This document shows, piece by piece, positions 31,734 to 57,154 of a stretch of 64,000 nucleotides of DNA. Source of the stretch: an uncultured Clostridia bacterium (lineage in GTDB: Bacteria; Bacillota; Clostridia; TANB77; CAG-508); NCBI GenBank assembly GCA_944391865.1, contig CALXVD010000003.1, positions 6,375 to 70,374 of the forward strand, written 5' to 3'. A program made the position numbers and the translations under genes. Within the stretch, counting starts at the first letter, position 1. Each line of letters opens with the position of its first letter. The notes beneath the pieces were generated by a model. It was given only the letters and a program-made list of their open reading frames with translations, searched no databases and was not told the DNA's origin.

Positions 31734-32453
31734 TTATCCTATTACAGATTTTCTTTTGACTGGTGCTTCATCTTTCTTTGCGTAAGTATCTTCAACTTTT
31801 AATTCACCAGTCATTATTTTTTCTGCATCAAATTTCTTTGAAGCTACCACAAAGTTATCGTCAAATGCCTTTTTAGTTAATGGTATAGCAGTTTCTTTTA
31901 TTGCTAATCTTGAACCACCAAACTCATCATCTGAGTGACTAATGTGAAGTTCGTATTTCGCTTTTCCGTCTTCTCCAATTGATTTTACAGTTCTTGCTAT
32001 TATACCCATTAAACCTGACATTTGGTCTCTAAGTTTTTCTTCAAATACCGGTTGAAATTTAGAAATTTCTCTACCAAATTTGTTCTTTTCGATTATTTCT
32101 TGTTCGTGTGAAATGAACATTACGTTGTCACAATAATCGTTTGCAATACGTACGATAGTTTCCCATAAGAAACTTCTTAACATTGTATAACCTTTGTATG
32201 CGATTTCTGATTCGTGTTCAACACCATTTTTATCACACCAGTAAAATCTTAAATAGTCAATTAGATATGAAGTAGTGTCAACTATCAACCAGTCTGGTTT
32301 TATTTTTCTTACTTTTTCTAATGCGTCATTTAATTCTTTATAGTTTCTAACTCTTAATATTCTTTCTGGTGGGAATGTATATTCCGCATTTCCGTCAGTT
32401 GAAATTATGTACGCATTTTCAAATTGAGAAGCAAACGTAGTTTTACCTGACAT
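31734..32453 (-). CDS. Sak4-like RecA-core ATPase (AAA_24)
   Basis: MSGKTTFA is a Walker A remnant. hhhhD at LIVDTT is Walker B. Size ~240 aa. The N-terminus is truncated at the P-loop by the upstream HNH gene. Confidence 0.5.
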   Translation of the reverse strand: MSGKTTFASQFENAYIISTDGNAEYTFPPERILRVRNYKELNDALEKVRKIKPDWLIVDTTSYLIDYLRFYWCDKNGVEHESEIAYKGYTMLRSFLWETIVRIANDYCDNVMFISHEQEIIEKNKFGREISKFQPVFEEKLRDQMSGLMGIIARTVKSIGEDGKAKYELHISHSDDEFGGSRLAIKETAIPLTKKAFDDNFVVASKKFDAEKIMTGELKVEDTYAKKDEAPVKRKSVIG

Positions 32454-32482
32454 TACTTTTCCGATAAACCCAAATCTTAATT

Positions 32483-33019
32483 TTAATCACCTCCTAATTT
32501 TAAGTAGGACCATATATAGTTACCTGCTGTTTTACGACGACCTTCACAACAAGAGCATATATTACCGTGATTTATACCTGTGATTAAACTCGCCTGTACT
32601 ACACTAGGATAATTATTTATTAAATGATATTGTCTATCATATTGATATACAGGTTTACTTTGGTCTAAACCTTTTTTCATATTATCAGTAAATTTCCATA
32701 AACCAGTGTCTTTAGCGTGGTTCATATTTTCTTTTCTTGTCATCCATTCAAGTTTATTGATTTTATTATTCATCTTATTTCCGTCAATATGATTAATTTC
32801 TGGCTTATTTTCTGGATTAGGTATAAAAGCAGTAGCGATGAGTCTATGAAGATATAGATGCTTTACTTTATTATTTTTACAAAGTGCTACACGAATATAT
32901 CCTTTTTCGTTGTGAGGTTTTATATATTTATTTGATTGTATTCGTTTAACATTTCCAAAATTACTTATTTGGTACAATCCTTCATATCCTTTTATGTCTT
33001 TCCATATTTCTGCCGGCAC
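32483..33019 (-). CDS. HNH homing endonuclease with NUMOD4-like N-terminus (GTG start)
   Basis: EIWKDIKGYEGLYQISNFGNVK...LHRLIATAFIPNPENKPEINHIDGNKMNNKINKLEWMTRKEN. RBS AAGGAGG 9 nt before the GTG. Confidence 0.8.
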   Translation of the reverse strand: MPAEIWKDIKGYEGLYQISNFGNVKRIQSNKYIKPHNEKGYIRVALCKNNKVKHLYLHRLIATAFIPNPENKPEINHIDGNKMNNKINKLEWMTRKENMNHAKDTGLWKFTDNMKKGLDQSKPVYQYDRQYHLINNYPSVVQASLITGINHGNICSCCEGRRKTAGNYIWSYLKLGGD

Positions 33020-33558: not shown

Positions 33559-34011
33559 TTATCCCCTCTTTTCTAACTTATCTATACATTTTTCTATAAT
33601 TTCTCTTTGCTTATTTGCTTTTCTTATCGCTTCATCGGATATTTTAGTATTTATTACTACTAAAAACATTAATACGGTAGACCCAAGCGCACCTGCCATT
33701 GATATTACCGCTCTAAATTCACTGAATAAGGCCTGACATACAAGACTAATAGTTAATATCACTAATTGTGCTCCAATAATCATAAAATTCATTTTATAAC
33801 ACGTGTTTCTATTCATATCATATACTAAATCCATAAGAGTCATTTTAGCCATCATTTTATAACCTAACATTGTGCCTGTTTTAATTTCTTCTTTTTCTTC
33901 ATAATCTACCATTTCTAAATTTTCATTAATTATTTTCATTTTCCTACCTACCTTTATATATGAAAAATGGTGAGGTTTATTTCTTTTATCCCCACCTGCA
34001 ACGTCCCGCAA
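33559..34011 (-). CDS. Membrane protein (2-3 TM)
   Basis: 150 aa. Hydrophobic core. Confidence 0.3.
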   Translation of the reverse strand: MRDVAGGDKRNKPHHFSYIKVGRKMKIINENLEMVDYEEKEEIKTGTMLGYKMMAKMTLMDLVYDMNRNTCYKMNFMIIGAQLVILTISLVCQALFSEFRAVISMAGALGSTVLMFLVVINTKISDEAIRKANKQREIIEKCIDKLEKRG

Positions 34012-34351
34012 TGAGGCGAGCTTTGAAACGTCACGCTAAATACCTTAGGCGAGGGATACCTTCCAGTGGTATTTGCCAACGAAGCATACTTTCGATATAC
34101 TTGCCCTACTTCACATAGTTTTCTATGCTTATACACTTACAAAGAGCTACTTTGTACCACGTACCTTACGAGGGTTATTCTCTACTGCATATGTAAGGAT
34201 TTGCGATTAACCACGCTAACCTCCCTTTTGTTAACGACACAAGGGACCTGCTGTCGCCCACTAATTAATAGGATACCGGCTGTTTTTTCATACAGTACAC
34301 ATTTAAGAAGACTGTGCTGTTAAAGGCATATTCACTTCACCGGTTATATAA
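34012..34351. ncRNA. Candidate structured non-coding RNA (GC-enriched non-coding stretch)
   Basis: ~340 nt with no credible ORF. GC is clearly above the genome background. The only ORFs are short and antisense-overlapping. It is adjacent to the tRNA cluster. Confidence 0.3.
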
Positions 34352-34624
34352 TTAGCTACATCTTATACAGATATTAGCTTTTCTTCTTGCATTCAATATT
34401 TTAGTATAATGTTCACTTGCGGTATCATTTCTAGCGTGTTCTTTTAATGCTGTGGTCGACCAATAAATTTTTGACCACATATATTGAATTGCGTGTGGCG
34501 TTCTTCCTAGTACAACTGCTAATCTATTAGCATTATCCCAGTTTGGTAGCATACTCGCTACTAGGTCCACCTCTTCTTGTGACCAAGGTTTTCCAGCATT
34601 TAACGGTTTATTACCTTCGCTCAT
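34352..34624 (-). CDS. Myb/SANT-like DNA-binding domain protein
   Basis: KPWSQEEVDLVASMLPNW...LAVVLGRTPHAIQYMWSKI matches the W..EE..L...W..R Myb repeat pattern. Confidence 0.4.
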   Translation of the reverse strand: MSEGNKPLNAGKPWSQEEVDLVASMLPNWDNANRLAVVLGRTPHAIQYMWSKIYWSTTALKEHARNDTASEHYTKILNARRKANICIRCS

Positions 34625-34675
34625 ATTGAGCCTCCTTTCTACCTGTAAATAATCTTACAGACTTATTTAATATAT

Positions 34676-34760
34676 AGGAGACTGTAGGATTTGAACCTAC
34701 GCCTGATAAATCAGATAAGATTACTCTTACTCCCCTCCACAGCCTTTGGGGAAAGTCTCC
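34676..34760 (-). tRNA. tRNA-like gene (type II, long variable arm; possibly Leu) with a non-canonical anticodon arm
   Basis: Acceptor stem GGAGACT/AGTCTCC, T-arm GTAGG-TTCAAAT-CCTAC and a variable-arm stem are present. The anticodon region folds as a 6-bp stem with a 4-nt loop rather than 5 bp with 7 nt. Confidence 0.4.
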
Positions 34761-34833
34761 ATATAATAACATAACTTTTGATTCTGGCTTTCAAACAGGT
34801 GGATTGGTGAGTTATGAGAACACCATTAGCCAT

Positions 34834-34920
34834 TGGCGCCGTGGTGAGGTGTCGAACCCCCACGCTTTCACGTGTATCTGCTTTCAAGGCAGAGTGTGAC
34901 TAGCCGGTCACAACCACGGC
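34834..34920 (-). tRNA. tRNA-Ser (anticodon TGA), CCA encoded
   Basis: Acceptor GCCGTGG/CCACGGC, anticodon arm TCTGC-CTTGAAA-GCAGA, long variable arm CACG..CGTG, T-loop TTCGACA, 3' GCCA. Confidence 0.7.
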
Positions 34921-34931
34921 ATATTTTCATT

Positions 34932-35018
34932 TGGTGGGTGAGGATGGATTCGAACCACCGTAGCCACAAGGACGCCTGATTTACAGTCAGGTGCAATTGA
35001 CCACTCTGCCACTCACCC
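34932..35018 (-). tRNA. tRNA-Tyr (anticodon GTA), CCA encoded
   Basis: Acceptor GGGTGAG/CTCACCC, anticodon arm CCTGA-CTGTAAA-TCAGG, long variable arm, T-loop TTCGAAT, 3' ACCA. Confidence 0.75.
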
Positions 35019-35336
35019 ATATTTTTTATGAAGCTGCGCGTGAATACAATTTTCTTGATTTGTCACCCATTCTAAATTATCTGCATTATTATTTGTTTTA
35101 TTAAAATCTTTATGATTAACTTGAGGTTTATTTTCTGGATTAGGTATGAAAGCCTCTGCTACTAATCTATGGACAAAAACTTGTCTAGTATTACTTCTAC
35201 TACCCATTGATAAGTTAACACTCAAATAATTATCTTTATCTAATTTTTGATTTAAAATTTTATCAGTATCTACACGTTTTACTATACCATCAGTTGATAC
35301 CATATATGAATTATTTATTTTGCATTTCTTCCACAT
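35013..35336 (-). CDS. Truncated HNH endonuclease (stop codon overlaps the 5' end of tRNA-Tyr)
   Basis: VHRLVAEAFIPNPENKPQVNHKDFNKTNNNADNLEWVTNQEN. It is only 107 aa compared with 166..178 for its paralogs. Confidence 0.6.
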   Translation of the reverse strand: MWKKCKINNSYMVSTDGIVKRVDTDKILNQKLDKDNYLSVNLSMGSRSNTRQVFVHRLVAEAFIPNPENKPQVNHKDFNKTNNNADNLEWVTNQENCIHAQLHKKYG

Positions 35337-35490
35337 AATCTACCTCTTTTAATCTATCTAAATGAATTACATAATGATGTTTTTCACAAAAATTTTTATG
35401 ACATTCTTCACTTCCACAAATTATATTCTCTTGTACCTTTTAATCCGTGATATTCGTAGTTTGTTTGTCCTGCCATTGTATTTCTCTCCC

Positions 35491-36117
35491 TTAACTTTTC
35501 AAACTATCCAACAGTAATTTCACGTCGTCAAGATTTTCAAAGTGGTCTTTATTCAAAAATATTATTCTGATACCAGCTTTTTCAGCTCTCTCCATTTTTT
35601 GTTTTATATTTTCTTCGTGTTTTTTCTTACTAACATACGTAGCTCTTTCTGAAATATGAATTGCTAGATTTGAATATTCTCCTAATAATAATGCGTCTAT
35701 TGACACTCCTTCTAATATAGTTCTATCATTTGGTTTATAAGGAATGTTATTCTTTTTTAACCAATCATATAATTTATTTACATATGCTTTCAAAGACTTT
35801 TGTGTTCTAGTTTCTACATATTGTCCTAATTCTGGATATTTAATAAAATAAGAAGGAGATAATTTAGTCTTTCCTATTACAGCCGCTAATTCAGTTCTTG
35901 TTACTAATCTACCTTGAGCTTTAGCCCATTCAAGTAATTTTTCTCCATCTTGAATATACAACTCTCCTTTTTTCCTTGAATCGTGCCTTAGTTTTACATT
36001 ATTTCTTTCTAAAACACGCTTTATAGAAGTAGGGTAAGTACCAAATACTTTTGCTATACTATTTATAGATTGACCATTTTCGTACGCTTCAATTATCGCA
36101 CTTGTTTCAATTTTCAT
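35491..36117 (-). CDS. HTH protein with a C-terminal restriction-endonuclease-like (Vsr/DUF559-like) domain
   Basis: N-terminal HTH (SINSIAKVFGTYPTSIKRVL). A C-terminal D..E.K-like pattern. This is a weak call. Confidence 0.3.
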   Translation of the reverse strand: MKIETSAIIEAYENGQSINSIAKVFGTYPTSIKRVLERNNVKLRHDSRKKGELYIQDGEKLLEWAKAQGRLVTRTELAAVIGKTKLSPSYFIKYPELGQYVETRTQKSLKAYVNKLYDWLKKNNIPYKPNDRTILEGVSIDALLLGEYSNLAIHISERATYVSKKKHEENIKQKMERAEKAGIRIIFLNKDHFENLDDVKLLLDSLKS

Positions 36118-36122
36118 ATCTA

Positions 36123-36536
36123 TTACTCCTTTATCTTTGATATAGCATTTTCATAAATCTTTCTATTATCGTTGTTTAAATCACATAATCTTATATTATT
36201 CAATGCTTCTGCGTCATCTCCTAATATATCAGTTATTTTTTCTTTTGGTATATTCATTTCTGCTATAATCACATCTAAGAATGTATTTTTCCTACCAAAA
36301 AACTCTGAGTCTAATAAGTCATAAGCTATATCTATAAACGGTTTATGTAGTTTTTTACTAAAAAATTTAAACATATCTGCTATATAAGGAGAACGACCTT
36401 TTCCTAAGTACGTGCTTTCACCATATAAAACACGTCTATATGAAGTTATTTGCATATTTGGATAGTCATATGTTTGCTTGAATTCTCTGTATAAGCTAGC
36501 TTTGTTAAGCACTCTGTATTCTGACAAATCCTTCAT
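36123..36536 (-). CDS. Hypothetical protein
   Basis: 137 aa. Confidence 0.3.
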   Translation of the reverse strand: MKDLSEYRVLNKASLYREFKQTYDYPNMQITSYRRVLYGESTYLGKGRSPYIADMFKFFSKKLHKPFIDIAYDLLDSEFFGRKNTFLDVIIAEMNIPKEKITDILGDDAEALNNIRLCDLNNDNRKIYENAISKIKE

Positions 36537-36584
36537 TTTAGCTTCGTTCCTTTCTTTTTTATTTATAAATATATAATATCATAT

Positions 36585-37058
36585 TTATTTAAAAACGTCA
36601 ATTGGTTTCTTGTCTTTATCTTCATATTTAACGTATTCTTGTTTGATATCTCCTCCGTCCAACATATATAATAATATAGATAACCAGTGGGCGGATTTAT
36701 TTGGATAAAACATATTATAATACACATAAAGTTTACCTTGGAGAGCTAATGTTGCTATTTTGTCGATATCATTTACAGATGTATCTTCTGGAATTAATAA
36801 TTCTAATCGTTCCATACTTTTTTTATCTTTATTTAATCGAAAACGTGGTAATGTTCCTACTGCACTTCTAGCAGTTATTATATCTATGTCTGAAAATCCA
36901 TAGTAAGTTTCTCTTAATTTTGGTGTTATCCATTTTGGGTTTTTTTCTATTTCATAAGTTGTTTTTCTAATAATAAATGGAAATATTATGTACTTCCATA
37001 ATTTTAACAATATAAATCCAATTAATATTAGTATAATTAGAACGAATACGTCTTTCAT
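36585..37058 (-). CDS. Membrane-anchored protein
   Basis: N-terminal TM helix. Confidence 0.3.
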   Translation of the reverse strand: MKDVFVLIILILIGFILLKLWKYIIFPFIIRKTTYEIEKNPKWITPKLRETYYGFSDIDIITARSAVGTLPRFRLNKDKKSMERLELLIPEDTSVNDIDKIATLALQGKLYVYYNMFYPNKSAHWLSILLYMLDGGDIKQEYVKYEDKDKKPIDVFK

Positions 37059-37825
37059 TATTTATATCCCTCTTTCTGTAGTATCATTCGTTGGTCTAAT
37101 AAATATTGTCTTACTTTATTTGACATTTCAGTGTCTTTATATTTGAAGTGATGACTATCTGGGTGTCTTAAATGGTCTATACATATTTCTTTACTACCAT
37201 ATTGTTTATATTTAGCTTTATATAATTCTGTATAAAATGCCACATTTGGAATTGCAATTTCTGGATATAATGGACACTTATCTTCGTCAAATATAGTATA
37301 TGCACAATAACCACCCCAATCACCAGGATGAATATCTTTATATGAAGTTATCGGTCTAGTAGCAGCAGTAAAATTCTTAGCTCCTTCTGCAACAAAAAAT
37401 TTAAACATACAAGCAGAAGGTTCTGTAGCTCTACTTAGTTTAATAAGTTCTAATACAGCTTCTGGTCTAACACTATCATCAATTGGAAAATAGAAAAACA
37501 CTTTCTTTTCAGTTGGATAAGTTTTTCTAAACTCATTTCTTAAACGATTTCTTGTAGAATACATTATTTTATCTGTTGTATATTTATGTTTGTCACAAAC
37601 TAGTATAAGTTTTTTACCAGTTCTAATTGTTAAAGTTTTAATTGCGTTTTCTACTTTTGGTCCTGGTGTATCATTATTATATATAATTTTAGGCTCTGCA
37701 ATATCTTCATAATTTATTCCTAATGAAATTAATTTTCTATAAATTGTAGTATAGTTATTTATAAAAATATCTACATATCTTTCTAAATAACCATTCCAAC
37801 AAACTGTACCAAAACAAAACTTCAT
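37058..37825 (-). CDS. Hypothetical protein; possibly a nucleotide-sugar/glycosyl-transferase-like fold
   Basis: 255 aa. The DD/DxD-like motif is weak. Confidence 0.2.
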   Translation of the reverse strand: MKFCFGTVCWNGYLERYVDIFINNYTTIYRKLISLGINYEDIAEPKIIYNNDTPGPKVENAIKTLTIRTGKKLILVCDKHKYTTDKIMYSTRNRLRNEFRKTYPTEKKVFFYFPIDDSVRPEAVLELIKLSRATEPSACMFKFFVAEGAKNFTAATRPITSYKDIHPGDWGGYCAYTIFDEDKCPLYPEIAIPNVAFYTELYKAKYKQYGSKEICIDHLRHPDSHHFKYKDTEMSNKVRQYLLDQRMILQKEGYK

Positions 37826-37827
37826 AT

Positions 37828-38193
37828 TTATACATTCCTTTCTTTTCTAATTTCTTGTAATATATGTTCTATACCGCCTATATTCATGTCATCTAAATAT
37901 TCGTTACAGAATATCTTACGTGGATTATTTTTAAAAAATTCTTTCATATGAGGCAAATTATCATTCACTGCGTCAAATTCAATGTTTTGTTCTCTACACC
38001 ACTTTACGGCCTGGTCTAAAACGTCTCCTTCACGCATAGTTACTAAAATCAAATAAGCCCCTTTTCTTTGTTCTTCTAATATATAATCTATAACTTCTTG
38101 AATAGGTTTCTGTATTTTAGGATAAGTACCCTTAGTTACAGCTAGGGTACCGTCAAAATCTACACCAATTATTCTATAAGGATTTTTCTTCAT
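37828..38193 (-). CDS. HAD-superfamily phosphatase (Pnkp-phosphatase-like DxDGT)
   Basis: IIGVDFDGTLAV is HAD motif I. RBS AAGGAGG 6 nt before the ATG at 38193. Confidence 0.55.
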   Translation of the reverse strand: MKKNPYRIIGVDFDGTLAVTKGTYPKIQKPIQEVIDYILEEQRKGAYLILVTMREGDVLDQAVKWCREQNIEFDAVNDNLPHMKEFFKNNPRKIFCNEYLDDMNIGGIEHILQEIRKERNV

Positions 38194-38533
38194 CGTCGAC
38201 CTCCTTAGCTTTGACCACACCTTTTTTAGGTTTCTTTTCTATTGGTAAAAATAACATTTCTTTATTATCAAAATATATTTTGCCATTTCCATTTTCCTTA
38301 TCTGGACCTTCATATTGAGGTCTCATAAAAGAAATATACCCTGTTCCATATTTTTTAACACATTCTCTTGTACGAGCAATTCTTTGGCAATCATTTTTAA
38401 AACCAAGATTTATATAATCAATATCAGTAGCTTTATCTTCTGGTAATTTATCTAAGTCAACGAAAACAGAAAAGCAATCCGCTACTTCAAATTGTTTCTT
38501 TTTTGTTCTGTGCAAATACACTTTTATTTCCAT
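38174..38533 (-). CDS. Hypothetical protein
   Basis: 119 aa. Confidence 0.3.
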   Translation of the reverse strand: MEIKVYLHRTKKKQFEVADCFSVFVDLDKLPEDKATDIDYINLGFKNDCQRIARTRECVKKYGTGYISFMRPQYEGPDKENGNGKIYFDNKEMLFLPIEKKPKKGVVKAKEVDDEEKSL

Positions 38534-38536
38534 TTA

Positions 38537-38683
38537 TTCTTCCTCCAAAAATATATTTTTTATAGATAAGTAAGCAGCTTTCATTCCTTTTAATATATTT
38601 GTATCCAATGTTTTATTTTCTTCTATTACTTTTAATTCATTTTTAATATAATCACTCAACGCCTCTTTAAATGGGTCCATTAA
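38537..38683 (-). CDS. Small 48-aa ORF with an RBS
   Basis: aaaggtgggg..ATG gives MDPFKEALSDYIKNELKV... It is not in the ORF track. Confidence 0.25.
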
Positions 38684-39790
38684 TTATTCCCCACCTTTCA
38701 ATAAAAATTTATTAGATACTACTTTAAACGAATATGTCATATCATTTTTTCTAAATACTAATCCTTCTGCTATTTGATTTGGCGAAGCGTCATCAAAGAA
38801 TGTTCTATATTTTATACCATCTACATATTTTAATAACATTTCTACAGTTTCATCTATATTGGTTGTAGTTTTAAAATCAAATTTTGCTCCTACTGGTATA
38901 ATTGGTACGTGTGGTAATCCAAAATCGTTACACATATTTAAAAAACGAAGAAAATCTAATTTTTTATAACTATCCATTTTACCCGTATCACTGACCCATA
39001 CGTTGAATATAAACCATTCTTTCTCTTTTAATCCTAATCTATTTGATTGAATACCAGGGCCACATAATTCTCCTTGAAATACTATATATTTTCCAGTTAA
39101 TTTTTGATAGTCTCTTAAATGTTTTTCTATGTCTCCATATTTTTTAACTGTAGTTGTGTACATATTTTCATCTTTATACCATTGATTTCTTCCACCAATT
39201 AGAAATGCGTCTTCAAATAATCCAACTGTACAAGAGGTTCCATCTAATTTTACACTCGCATACCAATCACCTCGTTCACTTTTCATATATTCTGGTAATA
39301 CGTCTTGAGCACAAACTTGTATTCTTTCTTCATCTGTTTTCGGTACATACCATTCATGATTGATTATTTCTCCAAGCGGACCATTAGAAACGGGTGGTTC
39401 ATATTTTTCTATTTTCAATAATTCAGTTAAATCGTCACCTTCATCATAGTCGATTGAAGAAAAAGATGTATCGTTTATTTGATTATATATTTCTCTTAAT
39501 TTGTGAATAGGTATAACTAAACCTTGTGAAATTTGTCCTCTAAATTTATGTGTACTTATTTTATATTTATTTAATTTTTGTGACCAAGAAGAACCTTTTA
39601 AAAATGTAAAAGCTGGTATATCTGGAAGTAAGCTATCTATTTCAAAATATATAACCATATCTCCAACTTGATATTCTCCTTTTTGTGCTACACAATCCCA
39701 ATTCAAAACTTGAACAATCTCAATACGGTCTGCTCCTTCAATTGGTTTTATAGCTTTTATTTTTTGTATACTTGCTAATTTTCTACTCAT
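38684..39790 (-). CDS. Rnl2-family ATP-dependent RNA ligase with an N-terminal OB/tRNA-binding-like domain (DraRnl/Rnl5-like architecture)
   Basis: Motif I SVKLDGTS, motif III VFQGELCGPGIQ, motif IV EGLVFRKND, motif V KVVSNKFLLK. The N-terminus IKAIKPIEGADRIEIVQV..VGDMVIYFEIDS resembles a Trbp111-type OB fold. Confidence 0.7.
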   Translation of the reverse strand: MSRKLASIQKIKAIKPIEGADRIEIVQVLNWDCVAQKGEYQVGDMVIYFEIDSLLPDIPAFTFLKGSSWSQKLNKYKISTHKFRGQISQGLVIPIHKLREIYNQINDTSFSSIDYDEGDDLTELLKIEKYEPPVSNGPLGEIINHEWYVPKTDEERIQVCAQDVLPEYMKSERGDWYASVKLDGTSCTVGLFEDAFLIGGRNQWYKDENMYTTTVKKYGDIEKHLRDYQKLTGKYIVFQGELCGPGIQSNRLGLKEKEWFIFNVWVSDTGKMDSYKKLDFLRFLNMCNDFGLPHVPIIPVGAKFDFKTTTNIDETVEMLLKYVDGIKYRTFFDDASPNQIAEGLVFRKNDMTYSFKVVSNKFLLKGGE

Positions 39791-40007
39791 TTTCTTCTCC
39801 TTTCGGTTCTAGTAATTCTTTACATAATTTCATTGAAAAATCATTTACTTTTTGTTGAATATATTCTGCGTCTTTTTTATCATTACAGATAATTTTGGGT
39901 GCTTGTATAATATATAAAATACTGTGATTATCTGTATTTGTAGGTTCACATATTATATTTTCCATACTTATTTGTATAGATTTATCACCTTTACTAAGAG
40001 TAGTCAT
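39783..40007 (-). CDS. Hypothetical small protein
   Basis: 74 aa. Confidence 0.25.
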   Translation of the reverse strand: MTTLSKGDKSIQISMENIICEPTNTDNHSILYIIQAPKIICNDKKDAEYIQQKVNDFSMKLCKELLEPKGEENE

Positions 40008-40219
40008 TAACCATTTCCTCCTTCCTGTGTTATTGGTGGTCCAAATCCTAATGTCGCTTTAGAGTTAGTTATAGTGGCTATTCTTTCATAGACACTAAGT
40101 TTAGCTCTAGCGCTAGCAAGTTCTTGTTTCAATTGAGCATTTTCGTTTTCTAACGAAAAAACTCTTTCTAATACAATATTTTCTATTTTTTCATATACGT
40201 TTTCTTTTTTGTTAGCCAC
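40007..40219 (-). CDS. Hypothetical coiled-coil protein
   Basis: 70 aa. Confidence 0.25.
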   Translation of the reverse strand: MANKKENVYEKIENIVLERVFSLENENAQLKQELASARAKLSVYERIATITNSKATLGFGPPITQEGGNG

Positions 40220-40239
40220 TATATATTCTCTCCTCTCTG

Positions 40240-40536
40240 TTATTCTAATTTTCTCTTCATTATTCTTTGGTCTACTTCCATATCTATTAATTTACTGATT
40301 TTTCTTTTTTCATCTTCAATAATTTCGTCTATTATCAAAAGCATTGTGCGTGGAGAGACCTCTAGTTTATTTTTTATTCTACTGATATAAGGCTCCCACA
40401 CGCGAAAGATACGCCTTGTTTCTATACGAAAACGTACCACATCATCTATATTTTCTGCGACGTTTTCTTTTATTTCTTCTAGCTCTTTTATTGTCATTTG
40501 ATGTAGCGCTATTGAATTAGCAATTTTATCGTCCAT
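40240..40536 (-). CDS. Hypothetical protein
   Basis: 98 aa. Confidence 0.25.
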   Translation of the reverse strand: MDDKIANSIALHQMTIKELEEIKENVAENIDDVVRFRIETRRIFRVWEPYISRIKNKLEVSPRTMLLIIDEIIEDEKRKISKLIDMEVDQRIMKRKLE

Positions 40537-40545
40537 ACTTCACCT

Positions 40546-41349
40546 CTATTGTCCTAAATTAAATAATGCGTTAGCATTTTCACCTAACATATATGTAGGC
40601 ATAACACCATTCCATTTGTCAATCATAGCTCTTTCATTTTCTAATCTTAATTGTTCTAATGATTGTTCTGTTACAGATTGTGATTGAAGTTCTCTAACTT
40701 TCGCTTCTGCTTCAGCTGTATTAATTTTTTGTTCATTTTGTACTTTTATAATTTCTAACTGAGCTTTCTCAGCCTCAGCTTTTTGTTGATTAGTTGTCTT
40801 GGCTTCAACAGCCGCATTAAATTCCTCTGTAAACCCTATGTTTTCTAAATTTACAGCACTAATTAAGAAATATTCTTCTAATCTTGAATTTAATTCTTCT
40901 GTAATAGAAGCTGCTACTTCACTTCTTCTTGTTACCATTTCTTCTGCTGTGAATTTAGCAATCGCAGCTTTTAATCCACTTTGTAATGCAGGATTTAAAA
41001 CTGTATCATTATAGTTTTCTCCTACATTTGCGTACAATTCTGATGCTTTCTCAGGTTTAATTTGATAGTTTATTGACACAGTCATATTTACAATTTGTAA
41101 ATCTTTAGCGCTTCCTTCTACTGTGTTTTGGTATTTTTGCGTTCTAATATCTACATCATGTACACTTTCAACAAATGGTGCTATAAAGTGAAATCCAGCG
41201 TCTAAATATTTATCTTGAACTTTTGAATACAATGTCACTACTCCTATATGTCCTGTTGGTACTATTGTTGTACTTGCAAATAGTATAATTAATCCTATAA
41301 CTAGAGCTATACATATTACTCCTACGATAACTTTTGATTTTGTTTCCAT
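40546..41349 (-). CDS. SPFH/band-7 (prohibitin/HflC-like) membrane protein
   Basis: N-terminal TM helix, a band-7 core (GHIGVVTLYSKV..LDAGFHFIAPFVESVHDVDIRTQ) and a long A/E/Q-rich coiled-coil tail. Confidence 0.6.
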   Translation of the reverse strand: METKSKVIVGVICIALVIGLIILFASTTIVPTGHIGVVTLYSKVQDKYLDAGFHFIAPFVESVHDVDIRTQKYQNTVEGSAKDLQIVNMTVSINYQIKPEKASELYANVGENYNDTVLNPALQSGLKAAIAKFTAEEMVTRRSEVAASITEELNSRLEEYFLISAVNLENIGFTEEFNAAVEAKTTNQQKAEAEKAQLEIIKVQNEQKINTAEAEAKVRELQSQSVTEQSLEQLRLENERAMIDKWNGVMPTYMLGENANALFNLGQ

Positions 41350-41351
41350 CT

Positions 41352-41591
41352 TTAATCAATCCTCCTATTATTTTTCTTTTCTTCTAACTGTTTATGTAAA
41401 TCTTCATTTGCAATTTTTAATGCTTCAATGTCTTCTCGTAATGTCACAATAAGTCTTTCCTGTAAGTCAAATTTTGTTTTTGAAGGTACTGATTTTATAT
41501 GACGATAATACACATACGCTAATAGCATACCAGCGAAAAGACCTATCATAAATATCGGAAACATTGCCATCTGATTATTTCCTCCTTTCAT
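41352..41591 (-). CDS. Small membrane protein with a coiled coil
   Basis: 79 aa. One TM. Confidence 0.3.
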   Translation of the reverse strand: MKGGNNQMAMFPIFMIGLFAGMLLAYVYYRHIKSVPSKTKFDLQERLIVTLREDIEALKIANEDLHKQLEEKKNNRRID

Positions 41592-42106
41592 AAAAATTTA
41601 ATATTTCTTCTTTTGTCATTGGTTCTTGTATTACGTCTATCCCTACGTTATATGAATTTGGTATTTCATATTTCATAGGATGCATAGTACCTGTATTTGA
41701 ATGAACGTGTCCATAAAAATGTAATGCTCCGTGATGTTGTTCGTTCCATACTTGAATTGGATAATGAAATAATGAAATTCTATGGTCTCCATCTTTAACC
41801 ATTGCGGTATCTCGCACCCATCTAAATAAAGTTTGGTCAAATTCTTCATCGTCTAAGAATAAATGGTCGTGATTACCTCTAATTAAAAATTTCATACCAT
41901 TAAGACGTTTTAATATTTTATTAGTACCGTCTCCTTTATAAAAAGATAAATCTCCTAAAATATATATTTCGTCTCCTTTTTTAATTTTATTATTCCATCT
42001 TTTTATATATTCTTCGTCCATTTCTTCTACAGTTTCAAATGGTCTATTTTCAAATTTTAGTACGTTTCTGTGTCCGAAAATGAGTATCTGCTATATAATA
42101 TTTCAT
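41575..42106 (-). CDS. Calcineurin-like metallophosphoesterase (Ser/Thr phosphatase family), interrupted by a +1 frame change near 42075
   Basis: The N-terminal fragment is MKYYIADTHF(R..*). The downstream frame gives GHRNVLKFENRPFETVEEM..ILGDL..GNHD..GHVH. One extra C follows TTTT at cat-ttt-c-gga. Confidence 0.55.
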
Positions 42107-42426: not shown

Positions 42427-42547
42427 AACTTGTTACAGAATAAAACTTAGTAGGTGCTTTCCAATAGCGTAAATTTCTTTTACATTTTTCTTGTATACAA
42501 TTTGTGTTACAATAACTTATATCTGCTGGTCCTGTTTTTCTTCTCAT
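42320..42547 (-). CDS. Cys-rich small protein (zinc-finger-like)
   Basis: CNTNCIQEKCKRN...CKDELHIKCEH. Confidence 0.25.
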   Translation of the reverse strand: MRRKTGPADISYCNTNCIQEKCKRNLRYWKAPTKFYSVTSFDKACKDELHIKCEHILSEEENSGRRIKTTKSRKP

Positions 42548-42858
42548 AATCCAATCAACCCTTCCTTTTCAACATAATCTTTTATGTCTTGTACACTTGT
42601 TGCTATTATGAAATGTCCTTTAGCTTTTTTTATTCTGGCTCCTTGTGCTAATTGAATTGCACTAGGCTTTCCATTTGGGTCTTTTACTTCTATACCAAAG
42701 AATAATCCTCCCCAACAACAAAGTAAATCAGGAATACCACTTTCTTGATATAAATCCCCACCGTGAATTTTATAACAAAGTCCTCCACACGATTTTATAT
42801 AGGCTTTAATTTCATTTTCGATATCTTTTTCTCTATGACGTTGATAATTACTCGCCAC
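42544..42858 (-). CDS. VRR-NUC domain nuclease
   Basis: GIPDLLCCWGGLFFGIEVKDPNGKPSAIQ is a PD-(D/E)xK motif with a VRR-NUC signature. Confidence 0.6.
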   Translation of the reverse strand: MASNYQRHREKDIENEIKAYIKSCGGLCYKIHGGDLYQESGIPDLLCCWGGLFFGIEVKDPNGKPSAIQLAQGARIKKAKGHFIIATSVQDIKDYVEKEGLIGL

Positions 42859-44199: not shown

Positions 44200-45567
44200 T
44201 TACTTACCTCCTTCTTCTAACCATTTTTCAAATAATCTTTGGTCAAAGTTTTCTCCAGATAAAAGAGTTCTATATATTTGAGGTTCTACACTTCCTGCTA
44301 TTTCTAAATAATAAAACACAGGTTGTTTTGTTTGACCAGTTCTATCCAAACGACCTTTACTTTGAACGAAATCAATATAATTTTCTGGATATGAAAACCA
44401 GATACCAATATTAGTTTTTATGAAGTCATTTAATCCAGCAGAACCTGCTTGTATGTTCACTATTGCTATACAATCATCATATTTTTCCCAATTTGTTAAG
44501 TCTTTTGTTGAACCGTCATATATGCACCAATGTCTTTTCTTTTTATCACAAACTTCACTTATGATTTTTGTTTCGTTAATAAAATTTGTAAATACTACAA
44601 GTCGACCTTCATTTCCGTCCAAAAAGTCTTCTAACCACTGAGCTTTTGGATTTTTATCTAAAAACATATCTCTTATAAACCCACTACAGCTTTCACGCAT
44701 ATAAATTCGGTGTAAGGTTGGTCTATTAGCGATTATAAAGTCTGTATCAATATCTTCTATATCCCCAGACATTAAAACTTCTTCTAGGGCCTTCTCGTCC
44801 ATTTTAGGCCATACTTTTTTCTCCTTAAAGTATTTCATTTCTGGTGTCATTTTAAAAGTCTGTTTGATTTCTATTGGTCGGTCATATATACTTTCGTATT
44901 TTTTATAATAAGTGTATTTTAATATTTCTTTATCCATTAATTCTGTATTTTTGTAACCTACAATTTCATTAAATGGAAATCTAGATTTTCCTGCATATAC
45001 TAAATTCCAGTTTTGTGCTTCAATACAAAATTCTTTTTTGAAATCTCTAGCCGAACGGTTAAAGACTTCACTATCAAGTGCTTTATATTGTGGATATAAA
45101 TCTATATACTTTTTATTTTGAGAAGTAGCACTTAATATTAATATATTTATATTAAATTTTGCAGAAAGCATTTGTATGAATTTACTCTGTTTAGAGTCAT
45201 ATGTTTTCATTTTATGACCCTCATCTACGATTATAAGACTTTTTCTTCTCACTAATTGTTCTTGAATTTTCTTTGAGTTTTTTTCTCTCCAAGCACTTTG
45301 AAATGAAGTTACAAATGTAGTTTCAATTTCAGGTACTTCTTTTTTTAAATCATTTTTCCAGTCGTCTACTTTAGATACAGGACAAATGACAACTATACCA
45401 GTAATATAACCAGCATCATATAATCTTTCTGCTACTGATAAAGATGTTACGGTTTTTCCTGTACCTGTGTCAAATCCTAAATATGCACCTTTAATTTCTC
45501 CATTTTCTATTCTTTTAAAAATGTCTTTTGCTGTTTGTTCTTGATAATCGTATAACTTTGTATACAT
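44200..45567 (-). CDS. SF2 (SNF2/DEAD-like) helicase
   Basis: Walker A GFDTGTGKT, motif II IIVDEGH, and C-terminal helicase motifs. Confidence 0.7.
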   Translation of the reverse strand: MYTKLYDYQEQTAKDIFKRIENGEIKGAYLGFDTGTGKTVTSLSVAERLYDAGYITGIVVICPVSKVDDWKNDLKKEVPEIETTFVTSFQSAWREKNSKKIQEQLVRRKSLIIVDEGHKMKTYDSKQSKFIQMLSAKFNINILILSATSQNKKYIDLYPQYKALDSEVFNRSARDFKKEFCIEAQNWNLVYAGKSRFPFNEIVGYKNTELMDKEILKYTYYKKYESIYDRPIEIKQTFKMTPEMKYFKEKKVWPKMDEKALEEVLMSGDIEDIDTDFIIANRPTLHRIYMRESCSGFIRDMFLDKNPKAQWLEDFLDGNEGRLVVFTNFINETKIISEVCDKKKRHWCIYDGSTKDLTNWEKYDDCIAIVNIQAGSAGLNDFIKTNIGIWFSYPENYIDFVQSKGRLDRTGQTKQPVFYYLEIAGSVEPQIYRTLLSGENFDQRLFEKWLEEGGK

Positions 45568-51241: not shown

Positions 51242-52354
51242 TTATATTTCTATTTTCTTACGTACAATCATTTCTCTAAATTGTTGTAATATCCATGTTT
51301 CCATTTGATAAATCCTTTGTTTTGAGAGGTCAAAATATTTTCCTATTTCAATATATGTATATTCACGGTTTTCGGGATTAAGTCCGTAACGCATTTCTAG
51401 AACTTTTTGATAACGTCGATATGATTCTTTGGTGATTGGAACATACTCTTCTAATTTTTTAAATAAAAATTTGACTATTTCACGTTTGTCTGATATTACA
51501 AGTGTTTCTGGATTAACACTTCCATCTTCATATTTCACATGAACATTATCCGCAGGATAAAGTTCTTCTTCTATGAATTTATCACTCATACGATAACGAC
51601 CCACGTCATTACATGAATATTGTAATTTTGAAATATAAGGTACTATATAATTATTCATTCTACTTAAAAAATTAGACACATGAAATCTATAAGAAGTAGA
51701 TGGTAATCTATTATAATCTACTATTAATGCTTTTAAATTAGTATCTTTGTCCTTATTTTCCCAACACCATGCCCACAACTCTTGTTTCCAATCTTCTTCA
51801 TAGTAATCAATTTTTAAATTGAATTCCTTAGAAACAGTTGGAGTAAATATCGCTATTAATTCGTCAATTATAATAGCTGCTCGTTCATTTAATGATAGTT
51901 CATAACTATGCTTTCTTTCAAAACCAGATTCTGTGTATTTCGGTTTTGTGATTTCTTTTCTTCCTTGCGCTTTTCCAGATTCACGAGATTGAAATTCTTG
52001 ATGTTTTATAGTAATCCATTTTCCTAATTCCTCAGTAGTTTTTTCTCCAGAAGCAACTTTTTTTGTCCATTCAAAAAACTCATTATTGAAATTAATAAGA
52101 AAATCATGATTAATTGTACCACGACGTTCTCTATTGAATACTATTTGACGAATTAAGTCATAAGTATGATGCCATGGTTGTTCTGAAAGTTTTATAGGGT
52201 ATTTCATGCCTTGCTTTTTAATTTTTTTAGGTTTAATCTCTAATTCGTATTCTTCCATTAATTCTAATATATCTTCATCATGAATGTGTGATTTTAGTCT
52301 TTCCCATATATCTTTATATTTATTCATAGACATTCTCTTTTCTATATACACCAA
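51242..52354 (-). CDS. Putative sigma-70-family-like transcription factor (region-4-like HTH at the C-terminus)
   Basis: YTYIEIGKYFDLSKQRIYQMETWILQQFREM resembles sigma region 4. Confidence 0.35.
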   Translation of the reverse strand: MVYIEKRMSMNKYKDIWERLKSHIHDEDILELMEEYELEIKPKKIKKQGMKYPIKLSEQPWHHTYDLIRQIVFNRERRGTINHDFLINFNNEFFEWTKKVASGEKTTEELGKWITIKHQEFQSRESGKAQGRKEITKPKYTESGFERKHSYELSLNERAAIIIDELIAIFTPTVSKEFNLKIDYYEEDWKQELWAWCWENKDKDTNLKALIVDYNRLPSTSYRFHVSNFLSRMNNYIVPYISKLQYSCNDVGRYRMSDKFIEEELYPADNVHVKYEDGSVNPETLVISDKREIVKFLFKKLEEYVPITKESYRRYQKVLEMRYGLNPENREYTYIEIGKYFDLSKQRIYQMETWILQQFREMIVRKKIEI

Positions 52355-55624: not shown

Positions 55625-57154
55625 ATGAGTAATCGTGTTTATAGTAGTACAAAACGTGACCCAACTGTAAACAAACATAGTAATCGAGAATTTACTAAAA
55701 GTGATTGTATAAAATGGTTAGATACATTAGAAGATGAAAGTGTTAATCTATGGATTTTAGACCCACCATATAATGTTTTAACTGGTAATATGACAAATAA
55801 AAATGGAGCGGCTGTATTTCATTCAAGATATACTGCGAAAGTGTCACCTAGTGAAAGTGATTTAGAAAAAGGAATTGTAACACCGAGATTTGAAGTAGCA
55901 ATTCCATGGGAAGAAAAACAAAAACTAGATGATTATAAGGAAACGTGTTATAAATGGTATTGTAAAGCTCATCAGAAACTATGTGATGATAGTTTTATGT
56001 TCATATTCTGGTCAATGAGATATTTATATTTAGCATATCAAATATTTGACGTAAATAGAGTTATCTTCTGGCAACAACCAAATATGATTAGTAGTATATC
56101 AGGAGATTTTTGTTATGATATAACACCTATTATAGTAATAAGAAAAGGAAATCCAAGACTTACTAAGGAAGCAGGATTATGGGATAAATCAAGTGTTTTA
56201 AATTTTACTAAACCTCAGGGAAACTATAAAAAAGATAAACTGACTCATCCTTGTTTTGTTGCAGGTACAAAAGTTTTCGTAAATAATAAATGGGAAAACA
56301 TTGAACAAGTTAAAGTAGGAGACATAACTCCTTATGGTGAAATTCAAGAACTTATGGTATCAAAAAGTAATAATATTTACGAATTAACTACTGAATTAGG
56401 GGTAACTAAAGTAACAGGTAATCACCCTTTATTAACGGTAGATAAGAAAGGAATAATTCAATGGAAACAAGTACAGAATTTAACGGAATCAGATTTAGTC
56501 TTACAAAGGCAGGATATTACAGAAGTACAACAAAACCAAGAAAGTTTATGCACGTTCTTGTGTGGGAATATTATAACGGACCAAAACCAGAAGGATATGA
56601 TATACACCATATTAACGGAATTAAAACCGATAATAGAATTGAAAACCTTGAACTTGTCGAACACGGACTACACAGCTTACATCACCACAGAACAAAAAAA
56701 GGATGGAAAATATGCAGTAAATGTAAACGAGAGCTTCCAGCAACAAGTGAATATTGGTATAAAGGCAGAGGATACTATCAAGGACCGTGTAGAGAGTGTA
56801 TATTGCAAGCCAGTAAAGATATTGAGTTTAAGAAAAGAAGAAATGCAAGAAGACGAGAACATAGACGTTTACAATCTATCAGTAAAAAACAATAATTTTT
56901 ATGATGTAGAAAATATAGGTATAGTACATAATTGTCAAAAACCTCAGGCACTACTTGAACATTTGGTATGGCTTAGCGACGCTGACCACGAAGGAAATGT
57001 TATTGGAGATTTCTTTGCAGGTTCAGGGTCCCTATTAAGAGCAGTGAACAAGGCGGATGTTATACTTTGTGATAAAAATGACGAATATTACGATAAATTC
57101 TTTGACGTAAACGTTACAGATGAGCGTGTTTATAGATGTAAGAAAATAGATTAA
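55625..57154 (+). CDS. N6A/N4C DNA methyltransferase (beta class) interrupted by an intein
   Basis: Motif IV DPPY at aa 46-49, motif I FAGSGS at aa 464-469. The extein junction THP|C..HN|CQKPQALLEHL reconstitutes an HPTQKP-type motif (HP-CQKP). Confidence 0.75.
   Translation: MSNRVYSSTKRDPTVNKHSNREFTKSDCIKWLDTLEDESVNLWILDPPYNVLTGNMTNKNGAAVFHSRYTAKVSPSESDLEKGIVTPRFEVAIPWEEKQKLDDYKETCYKWYCKAHQKLCDDSFMFIFWSMRYLYLAYQIFDVNRVIFWQQPNMISSISGDFCYDITPIIVIRKGNPRLTKEAGLWDKSSVLNFTKPQGNYKKDKLTHPCFVAGTKVFVNNKWENIEQVKVGDITPYGEIQELMVSKSNNIYELTTELGVTKVTGNHPLLTVDKKGIIQWKQVQNLTESDLVLQRQDITEVQQNQESLCTFLCGNIITDQNQKDMIYTILTELKPIIELKTLNLSNTDYTAYITTEQKKDGKYAVNVNESFQQQVNIGIKAEDTIKDRVESVYCKPVKILSLRKEEMQEDENIDVYNLSVKNNNFYDVENIGIVHNCQKPQALLEHLVWLSDADHEGNVIGDFFAGSGSLLRAVNKADVILCDKNDEYYDKFFDVNVTDERVYRCKKID
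56252..56932 (+). mobile_element. Intein (227 aa) in the methyltransferase
   Basis: Block A CFVAGTKV, block B VTGNHPLL, blocks F/G DVYNLSVKNNNFYDVENIGIVHN, and a +1 Cys. Confidence 0.7.
56461..56895 (+). CDS. HNH endonuclease ORF nested inside the intein in the +2 frame (not fused to the intein)
   Basis: FMHVLVWEYYNGPKPEGYDIHHINGIKTDNRIENLELVEHGLHSLHH plus a CxxC..CxxC zinc ribbon. It has its own ATG and an RBS (aagaaaggaataattca). Confidence 0.6.
   Translation: METSTEFNGIRFSLTKAGYYRSTTKPRKFMHVLVWEYYNGPKPEGYDIHHINGIKTDNRIENLELVEHGLHSLHHHRTKKGWKICSKCKRELPATSEYWYKGRGYYQGPCRECILQASKDIEFKKRRNARRREHRRLQSISKKQ

Follow-up and report, generated by a model that had tools for sequence, protein, structure and literature searches.

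The stretch of DNA analysed here, 64,000 nucleotides (nt) of contig CALXVD010000003.1 from an uncultured Clostridia bacterium (assembly GCA_944391865.1; hereafter the window, whose positions are used throughout), carries a viral RNA ligase of the Rnl5 family in a reduced, kinase-less RNA-repair and transfer RNA (tRNA) island, of a kind already described in phages. The ligase gene shares the minus strand with genes for a calcineurin-like phosphoesterase, a HAD phosphatase and a small tRNA array. An earlier note, made from the sequence alone, had taken the ligase, the HAD protein and three tRNAs for a phage module that heals tRNAs cut in the anticodon loop. All the elements it quoted are present, including the ligase motifs KLDGTS, FQGELCGPGIQ and EGLVFRKND, and the domain matches of the ligase and the HAD protein are far beyond chance. 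The function it proposed is unlikely, because the nicks that Rnl5 enzymes seal are in duplexes and the tRNA array differs from one relative to the next.

The ligase was placed by its matches to enzymes of known structure and to curated family models. In the PDB it matches NgrRnl of Naegleria gruberi (5cot, E 8e-41) over amino acids (aa) 3-365, with the OB module included in the alignment, and phrog_968, annotated 'RNA ligase', matches it at 1.8e-70. It scores 140.5 bits (E 5.9e-41) with the NCBIfam model TIGR02306 RNA_lig_DRB0094, just under the equivalog cutoff of 151.15; this miss touches only the 'equivalog' label and leaves family membership unaffected. In contrast, its score with the Rnl2 model TIGR02307 is 18.8 bits, where the cutoff is 197, and T4 Rnl2 (1s68) aligns through the nucleotidyltransferase (NTase) core only (aa 173-316, E 3.5e-6). 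The comparison with structures of the T4 Rnl2 and DraRnl types that had been suggested earlier thus came out for the latter, and of the label 'Rnl2-type RNA ligase' the words RNA ligase stand and Rnl2 does not. The enzyme is not a DNA ligase, and its N-terminal domain fits an OB fold, as seen both in Pfam (PF21189, E 3.5e-30) and in the NgrRnl alignment. The description of that domain as Trbp111-like was not borne out, with no tRNA_bind match in Pfam at E<=0.1.

The catalytic apparatus is complete. Motif I contains K181, motif III E241 and motif IV E342; motif V lies at K356, and the chain stops 12 aa beyond it, without a C-terminal appendage. Residues R3, D52, K129, R156 and K181 align with R4, D53, K121, R149 and K170 of NgrRnl, and D183, E241, E342 and K356 align with its D172, E227, E312 and K326. 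These nine NgrRnl residues bind ATP and two metals, and the OB residues R4, D53 and K121 orient the ATP gamma-phosphate (PMC7261155). Moreover, K181, D183, E241, E342, K356 and R156 are invariant or nearly so in 42 homologues that are 34-67% identical to the window ligase. Because of the full-length NgrRnl match, the NCBIfam placement and the conservation of the nine catalytic or ATP-contacting residues, we conclude that the predicted protein is an intact Rnl5-family ATP-dependent RNA ligase, neither Rnl2 proper nor a DNA ligase.

The Rnl5 enzymes characterised so far close 3'-OH/5'-PO4 nicks of duplexes in which RNA provides the 3'-OH strand, and they work poorly on single-stranded RNA (PMC4408790, PMC5397189), whereas breaks in stem-loops are the task of Rnl1 and Rnl4 ligases (PMC4408790). 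By analogy, we infer that the window ligase would be adenylylated at K181, transfer AMP to a 5'-phosphate and seal 3'-OH/5'-PO4 nicks with an RNA 3'-OH strand in base-paired nucleic acid, in a reaction dependent on ATP and Mn2+. What the family does physiologically has been termed 'uncharted', the exception being a DNA-repair phenotype in D. radiodurans (PMC4408790, PMC5397189). Phage members were already noted (PMC4408790, PMC5397189), and we found ligase homologues in 338 phage records (Pseudomonas, Aeromonas and others). The family is large, with 7,762 representatives of 50%-identity clusters at E<=1e-3, and 6,585 close homologues were scored in metagenomes, where the phage clade is abundant. 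One representative (P0296) bears an N-terminal HNH domain ahead of the ligase (HNH_5/HNH + OB + RNA_ligase) and matches the HNH-ligase fusions reported before (PMC7824862).

The surroundings of other viral Rnl5 genes bear on what the enzyme may be used for. We took 77 further IMG/VR loci whose ligases are 33-41% identical to the window ligase, grouped all open reading frames (ORFs) up to 8 kb from the ligase into clusters and used Pfam to identify those that recurred. Within this distance, an Rnl1-type ligase is found at 20 loci, a Metallophos protein at 17 (14 of them BLASTP-similar to the window phosphoesterase), stand-alone AAA_33 kinases at 14, the cyclic-phosphate-processing cREC domain at 11, HD_4 at seven and a true Pnkp (AAA_33 + HAD_PNKP) at five. 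Nearly all of these recurrent repair neighbours lie on the strand of the ligase, and at 35 loci one or more of the phosphoesterase, kinase, Pnkp, Rnl1 and HD partners is present. tRNA genes, 158 in all, accompany 26 of the ligases. Since Rnl5 genes often sit among RNA-repair genes and tRNA arrays, an RNA-repair theme is reasonable. This result fits the picture in the literature of phages that use tRNAs together with Rnl1/Rnl2-type ligases, kinases, HAD proteins and occasionally calcineurin-like or HD phosphatases against host attack on translation (PMC7824862).

The partner with the better comparative support is the phosphoesterase, which the earlier note overlooked. A fusion protein in the family, P0252 (Metallophos + OB + ligase), has an N-terminal domain that matches the window phosphoesterase (E 3e-20), and the metallophosphoesterase of Listeria phage LP-125 is a further homologue (E 2e-19). 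Because of this fusion and its presence near 17 of the 77 diverse ligases, the phosphoesterase family would be the strongest comparative tie to the ligase and its best-supported end-healing partner. In the window the gene is frameshifted: ORF 41575-42021 encodes the C-terminal five-sixths, and the first ten codons (MKYYIADTHF) stand in another frame, from 42106. The cause is a 1-nt insertion, a C at 42076 in codon 11, which is absent from the intact genes of two relatives (L001 and L012), and the frame-repaired product matches phrog_547 'phosphoesterase' at 7e-47. The frameshift is either that of a pseudogene or an assembly error. Among the 14 syntenic relatives of the window in IMG/VR (L001-L014), 13 are informative here, and 12 carry an intact phosphoesterase at the same position, as two divergent alleles; L002 is without the gene. 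The copies in L001 and L012 show about 90% identity to that of the window and those in the ten others only 36-38%, amid flanking genes at 70-85%, a pattern that points to cassette-like replacement as the probable origin of the alleles.

No kinase was found in the 64-kb window, in line with the earlier note, which had seen no kinase P-loop nearby. A six-frame Walker-A scan returned only a Sak4-like ATPase and a primase-helicase, and the AAA_33 and Pnkp kinases of other Rnl5 loci had no tblastn match. With proteins of those loci as tblastn queries, homologues of Rnl1 (PF09511), cREC, AAA_33 and HD were likewise absent from the window.

We consider the chances about evenly balanced that these genes, the securely identified ligase included, form a pared-down, kinase-less kit for the repair of RNA breaks, set beside a separate array of tRNA and HNH genes. 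The Rnl5 ligase would be the sealing enzyme, the phosphoesterase 1.8 kb upstream would be the best-supported end-healing partner, removing 3'-phosphates, and the BT0820-type HAD protein 0.5 kb downstream may be a second 3'-end phosphatase. Because there is no 5'-kinase, the kit would handle only breaks that already bear a 5'-phosphate, for example where a metal-dependent tRNase (Toprim or HNH) has nicked a tRNA stem, and PrrC-type cuts in the anticodon loop would be beyond its reach. Resealing of 3'-OH/5'-P nicks in tRNA stems by the window ligase is plausible. After cleavage by the P2-OLD nuclease the ends are 5'-P/3'-OH, and T4 Rnl1 or Rnl2 closes a lone nick in the stem with no healing step (PMC12445682). 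Nicked stems also have the geometry favoured by Rnl5 enzymes. T4-style repair of the anticodon loop by this gene set is unlikely, because Rnl5 enzymes seal duplex nicks and not loop breaks. The tRNA array, 3.7 kb from the ligase, would be separate and fast-evolving and, given its likeness to the T4-like tRNA/SegB region, more probably a source of replacement tRNAs than of repair substrates. Ligase and tRNA array together would make up a loose translation-protection island.

Table 1. Features of the ligase locus and of the replication/recombination block (window positions).
Feature	Position	Strand	Basis or remark
RNA ligase, Rnl5 family (DraRnl/NgrRnl), 368 aa	38684..39790	-	PF21189 + PF09414, NgrRnl 5cot
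N-terminal OB-fold domain of ligase, aa 5-95	39506..39778	-	PF21189 'PHA02142 OB-fold domain', E 3.5e-30
NTase domain of ligase, aa 175-358	38717..39268	-	PF09414 RNA_ligase, E 5.8e-19
Calcineurin-like metallophosphoesterase (phrog_547), frameshifted	41575-42106	-	about 1.8 kb upstream of ligase
48-aa ORF between ligase and 119-aa ORF	38534..38680	-	ORF list
119-aa clade-specific protein between ligase and HAD	38174..38533	-	in 14/14 relatives
Predicted cap-less HAD phosphatase, BT0820 family, 121 aa from ATG 38193	37828..38193	-	motif I DFDGT, motif IV DD
255-aa protein directly downstream of HAD	37058..37825	-	in 11/14 relatives
Free-standing HNH homing-type endonuclease (NUMOD4 + HNH_3) abutting tRNA-Tyr	35013..35336	-	Pfam, PHROG
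tRNA-Tyr(GUA), class II, encoded CCA	34932..35018	-	ARAGORN default; Rfam tRNA 61 bits
tRNA-Ser(UGA), class II, encoded CCA, atypical T arm	34834..34920	-	ARAGORN default
Degenerate tRNA-like relic of a tRNA-Ser(GCU) gene	34676..34760	-	relaxed ARAGORN, Rfam sub-threshold
Sak4-like ATPase	31734-32483		Walker-A at 32462
Resolvase-like endonuclease	42544-42858		in replication/recombination block
Helicase	44200-45567		in replication/recombination block
Primase-helicase			Walker-A at 58979

The HAD protein starts 491 nt downstream of the ligase stop (ATG 38193); with a GTG extension its ORF spans 37828..38220 on the minus strand and has the DFDGT motif at aa 21-25. Thus, a DxDxT phosphatase about 500 nt from the ligase, as described earlier, is there, but it is not Pnkp-like: it scores 14.8 bits (E 0.032) with the HAD_PNKP model PF25109, whose cutoff is 27.6, and its DxDxT nucleophile motif is generic to the HAD superfamily. 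It matches BT0820 (PDB 2obb) with E 1e-17 and 36% identity, and the model NF046079 with 2.6e-24 and 86 bits, where the equivalog cutoff is 165. Its predicted structure has a predicted local distance difference test score (pLDDT) of 82, and Foldseek ranks 2obb best with a template-modelling (TM) score of 0.72. At far lower scores follow GmhB, KdsC and a phage sugar-diphosphate phosphatase, with Pnkp1 at rank 7 (TM 0.60) and T4 Pnkp at rank 15-16 (TM 0.50). By these comparisons the protein would belong to a subfamily related to BT0820, and may act on 3'-phosphates of RNA or DNA, on nucleotides or on sugar phosphates. Its part in repair is ambiguous, as members of the family lie with an RNA ligase and a phosphoesterase in Listeria phages and with nucleotide-metabolism genes elsewhere.

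The 119-aa protein has 420 homologues, all of the same clade and none with a Pfam domain, and its AlphaFold model (pLDDT 50) is unusable. A protein homologue search with the ligase, the HAD protein and the 119-aa ORF returned same-clade sequences only; the matches to the latter two were without names or Pfam domains. The 255-aa protein has no match in Pfam, PHROG, NCBIfam or PDB profiles or, by tblastn, in the phage database. A GT-A-like fold, proposed for it by eye from a DD motif, was dropped, as no database match supported it.

The window has the layout of a tailed phage, with about 30% G+C. Structural genes, among them a 1,673-aa ORF of tape-measure size, occupy the plus strand at 1-30 kb, and the minus-strand block at 31-54 kb holds replication, recombination and accessory genes. 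By DNA it has no close cultured relative: megablast of 34000-41000 against 50,697 phage records gave a single 66-nt HNH match. The ligases of the 14 syntenic relatives, on contigs of up to 78 kb, are 71-80% identical to that of the window, thousands of near-identical ligases from metagenomes are in the protein database, and an 82%-identical ligase on two metagenome-assembled contigs labelled 'uncultured Clostridia' is a weak hint at the host. In all 14 relatives the ligase, the 119-aa ORF and the HAD gene are kept (tblastn), and the block of ligase, 119-aa ORF, HAD gene and helix-turn-helix (HTH) gene is constant. Scans for promoters and terminators stayed at chance level and were uninformative on operon structure. 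Elsewhere in the window, a plus-strand ORF at 55625-57154 encodes an N6/N4 DNA methyltransferase (PF01555), interrupted at aa 235-436 by a match to an intein-splicing domain that is under the Pfam cutoff, and a 370-aa protein at 51242-52354 (minus strand) has a C-terminal match to sigma-70 region 4 and may be a phage sigma-like factor.

Downstream of the constant block, the relatives carry from one to ten tRNAs with HNH genes interspersed, drawn from Met, Gln, Thr, Glu, Ser-GCU, Tyr, Lys, Ser-UGA, Pro, Trp and His types; the array of the window is the smallest complete one apart from that of L012. Because the arrays vary so widely while the ligase-HAD block is constant, the tRNA array is, as far as these comparisons go, an independently evolving cassette, and its three tRNAs are not a set matched to the ligase. 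Only two of the three tRNAs reported earlier, Tyr(GTA) and Ser(TGA), proved sound. The tRNA-Ser(UGA) has one mismatch in its T stem and a UUCGACA loop, and in Rfam its best match is the tRNA-Sec model (39.4 bits, under the cutoff of 47). It is 95% identical in L005, L008, L009 and L010 and 85% identical in L014. The third element reaches 21.7 bits with the Rfam tRNA model, whose cutoff is 29, and is reported by ARAGORN at the 80% threshold only, as 'Leu(aag)' with three of five anticodon-stem pairs. Unlike both neighbouring tRNAs it encodes no CCA; its D and anticodon arms have decayed, and its acceptor stem and T arm are intact. Towards its 3' end it matches tRNA-Ser(GCT) genes in three relatives (L004, L005 and L014), with two of which, L004 and L014, it has the acceptor stem (GGAGAC/GUCUCC) and T arm in common. 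By this likeness it is the relic of a decayed tRNA-Ser(GCU) gene and not a tRNA-Leu. The same match led us to reject a functional tRNA-Leu and a mimic of the mascRNA or Y-RNA kind.

A second free-standing HNH/NUMOD4 gene lies at 32483-33019 on the minus strand and, with the one at 35013-35336, flanks the tRNA region; in L002-L014, HNH genes sit at varying positions inside the array, at about 15-19 kb of those loci. This suggests that homing endonucleases drive the turnover of the tRNA cassette. We also observed a conserved structured RNA of about 300 nt (33960-34262, minus strand) at the distal end of the array, in the 340-nt gap between the ORFs 34352-34624 and 33559-33942. Copies occur in each of the 14 relatives and in 23 IMG/VR stretches. 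In an alignment of 17 sequences, 98.4% of pair cells are standard pairs, and compensatory double changes are seen at 25 of the 50 pairs, compared with 3-8 for slid controls; none of 500 shuffles reached the covariation score. The RNA has no match in Rfam 15, and a covariance model of its 5' domain hit only the window clade, with the window copy alone among 87 sources. The idea that it travels with Rnl5 ligases was ruled out, as the model has no match near other Rnl5 ligases. The T4 tRNA cluster contains small stable RNAs of which this one is reminiscent.

Several observations weigh against a repair kit. Adjacency in close relatives is weak evidence of a common function, because the minus-strand block is one densely packed array among replication and recombination genes. 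A HAD protein of the window type is near none of the 77 diverse Rnl5 ligases, which rules it out as a general Rnl5 partner, and six of the seven phage contexts that we inspected for it are nucleotide-metabolism or replication neighbourhoods: a thymidylate-synthase-like gene and QueC in Ralstonia phage RSF1; thymidylate synthase and DNA polymerase in Bacillus phage YungSlug; an adjoining metallophosphoesterase, dCMP deaminase and QueC in Yersinia phage CAU_YEP3; thymidylate synthase, a glucosyltransferase and dNK in Lactobacillus phage ATCCB; Nrd, Tmk and NMN adenylyltransferase in Enterococcus phage 21C1; and replication genes in Faecalibacterium phage Epona. The seventh, in Listeria phage LP-125, is an unmistakable RNA-repair island. 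At 42 of the 77 loci none of the phosphoesterase, kinase, Pnkp, Rnl1 and HD partners is present, and the frequency of phosphoesterases near Rnl5 genes stands without a proper background rate for phage DNA. The frameshift in the phosphoesterase may mean that the kit is non-functional in this genome, if it is not an assembly error. About 13 kb of the roughly 77-kb genome lie outside the window and could encode a kinase. Finally, DNA repair after irradiation is the sole physiological function yet demonstrated for any Rnl5 enzyme (PMC5397189).

Three other explanations were weighed against the kit. It is possible, though somewhat doubtful, that there is no module at all and that early genes are merely packed together, with the ligase in another RNA role, the HAD protein acting as a nucleotide or sugar-phosphate phosphatase, perhaps with the 255-aa protein, and the tRNAs serving codon supply or replacing cut ones with nuclease-resistant copies. 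The host sets of the HAD homologues (232 phage records, from Listeria, Klebsiella, Enterococcus, Salmonella and others) and of the 338 records with ligase homologues hardly overlap, and this, like the absence of the HAD type from diverse Rnl5 loci, its nucleotide-metabolism contexts and Foldseek neighbours, and a tRNA array that turns over independently of the ligase block, is what unrelated neighbours would give. A phage tRNA-Tyr alone, moreover, defeats Septu and retron-Eco7 (PMC11555353, PMC13096335). However, a PF09414 ligase, a BT0820-type HAD protein and a phrog_547-type phosphoesterase stand together beside RtcB in Listeria Herelleviridae, the P0252 fusion joins phosphoesterase and ligase in one chain, and tRNAs lie within 8 kb of the ligase at 26 diverse loci. 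A role on the DNA side is unlikely; here the ligase would seal nicks with a short ribonucleotide patch at the 3' end, formed in phage replication, recombination or repair, and the HAD protein and phosphoesterase would clean DNA ends or act on nucleotides. The block that the ligase shares with the helicase, resolvase-like endonuclease, Sak4-like ATPase and primase-helicase would suit such a role, no separate DNA ligase appeared among the window ORFs scanned (a scan covering part of the ORFs), and the HAD family is often near thymidylate synthase and DNA polymerase genes. DraRnl gives protection from ionising radiation and makes genome reassembly faster, and a role of this kind has been proposed for it (PMC5397189). 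Against this, the recurrent neighbours of Rnl5 in diverse phages are Rnl1, Pnkp, cREC, RtcB and tRNAs, not replication genes, and the host LigA could serve replication.

Less probable again is the reading of the earlier note, T4-like heal-and-seal repair of anticodon-loop cuts made by PrrC, RloC or colicin-type nucleases, with the HAD protein as a Pnkp 3'-phosphatase, a kinase from the host and three tRNAs under protection. Ligase, HAD protein and tRNAs are all there, the HAD protein has a weak similarity to polynucleotide kinases (phrog_415 at 8e-6, the Foldseek match to Pnkp1 and a Pnkp HAD tblastn match of E 8e-4), and a bona fide Pnkp lies beside Rnl5 at five of the viral loci. But Rnl5 prefers duplex nicks and loop breaks belong to Rnl1 and Rnl4 (PMC4408790), the window is without kinase, Rnl1 and cREC, and the HAD protein falls under the HAD_PNKP cutoff. 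The tRNA count of the relatives runs from one to ten, and the third tRNA is a relic. In addition, cuts of the HEPN type give 5'-OH ends, which this gene set would not phosphorylate.

A narrower form of the kit, which we rate as a long shot and below all of these alternatives, is kinase-independent repair of tRNA stem nicks in this clade by a phage that also backs up the class II tRNAs under attack. The ligase would reseal nicks made by Septu/PtuAB-, PARIS- or OLD-like tRNases in paired parts of tRNAs, a notable target being the long variable arm of class II tRNAs. The Tyr, Ser(UGA) and relic Ser(GCU) genes, all class II, would be backup copies of the targets, and the phosphoesterase and HAD protein would remove 3'-phosphates where these occur. 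Septu, whose PtuB is an HNH nuclease, cleaves tRNA-Tyr within the variable-arm stem (PMC11555353, PMC13096335), as does retron-Eco7 (PMC13096335). If it is true, stem-nick repair would be the first physiological substrate for a viral Rnl5 ligase. More generally, viral Rnl5 members have not been studied so far, and this clade presents the ligase in a minimal setting, with phosphoesterase(s) but no kinase. The 77 loci surveyed also yield a list of partners for viral Rnl5, namely Rnl1, phosphoesterase, AAA_33/Pnkp, cREC and tRNAs. It can be predicted that a nick-sealing ligase may be a defence against tRNases whose cuts in tRNA stems have 5'-phosphate/3'-OH ends, a chemistry unlike that of the PrrC/T4 paradigm.

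Among known systems, NgrRnl (5cot) and DraRnl (DR_B0094) share with the window ligase the order of OB and NTase domains, the lack of a C-terminal domain and the catalytic and ATP-contacting residues. The window ligase is about 30 aa longer, with inserts between the OB and NTase domains, and, being phage-encoded, need not share the radiation-repair role of DraRnl. T4 Rnl2 and the kinetoplastid REL have the same PF09414 NTase fold and the nick-sealing preference expected here; however, Rnl2 has a C-terminal domain and no N-terminal OB domain. In some comparative genomics, OB-bearing ligases are lumped into 'Rnl2', and HNH fusions have been noted among them (PMC7824862).

T4 Pnkp and Rnl1, which act against PrrC, likewise combine a phage ligase with a DxDxT HAD domain near phage tRNAs and follow the same logic of restoring broken RNA, whereas the window has neither a kinase nor an Rnl1-type ligase, its ligase would be a duplex-nick sealer and its HAD protein fails the Pnkp-HAD model. 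Clostridium thermocellum Pnkp unites a kinase with a ligase of the Rnl4 type, fit for breaks in stem-loops, and has the Hen1 methyltransferase as its partner. It resembles the window in joining a calcineurin-like phosphoesterase to an ATP-dependent RNA ligase, a linkage that the P0252 fusion mimics, and differs in its kinase, Rnl4-type ligase and Hen1, none of which is in the window. In T5 and T6, a phage tRNA-Tyr lies beside a free-standing homing-type endonuclease in a variable tRNA array, and the tRNA-Tyr copies of the T4-like tRNA/SegB region defeat Septu and retron-Eco7 (PMC11555353, PMC13096335). The window has this gene layout too, but its endonuclease is HNH/NUMOD4 where SegB is GIY-YIG.

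The Listeria Herelleviridae island, exemplified by phage LP-125, has the gene order RtcB, NADAR, PF09414 ligase, hypothetical, BT0820-type HAD, hypothetical, phosphoesterase. The Listeria ligase lacks the OB domain (it is Rnl2-like, with 313 aa) and has no BLASTP similarity to the window ligase; RtcB and NADAR are additional there, and the phosphoesterase of the window differs in lying upstream and in its frameshift. Nevertheless, three families are common to both, and ligase, small ORF and HAD gene follow each other in like local order and spacing. With ligase, HAD protein and phosphoesterase within 2.6 kb of one another, LP-125 presents an independent recurrence of the trio seen in the window.

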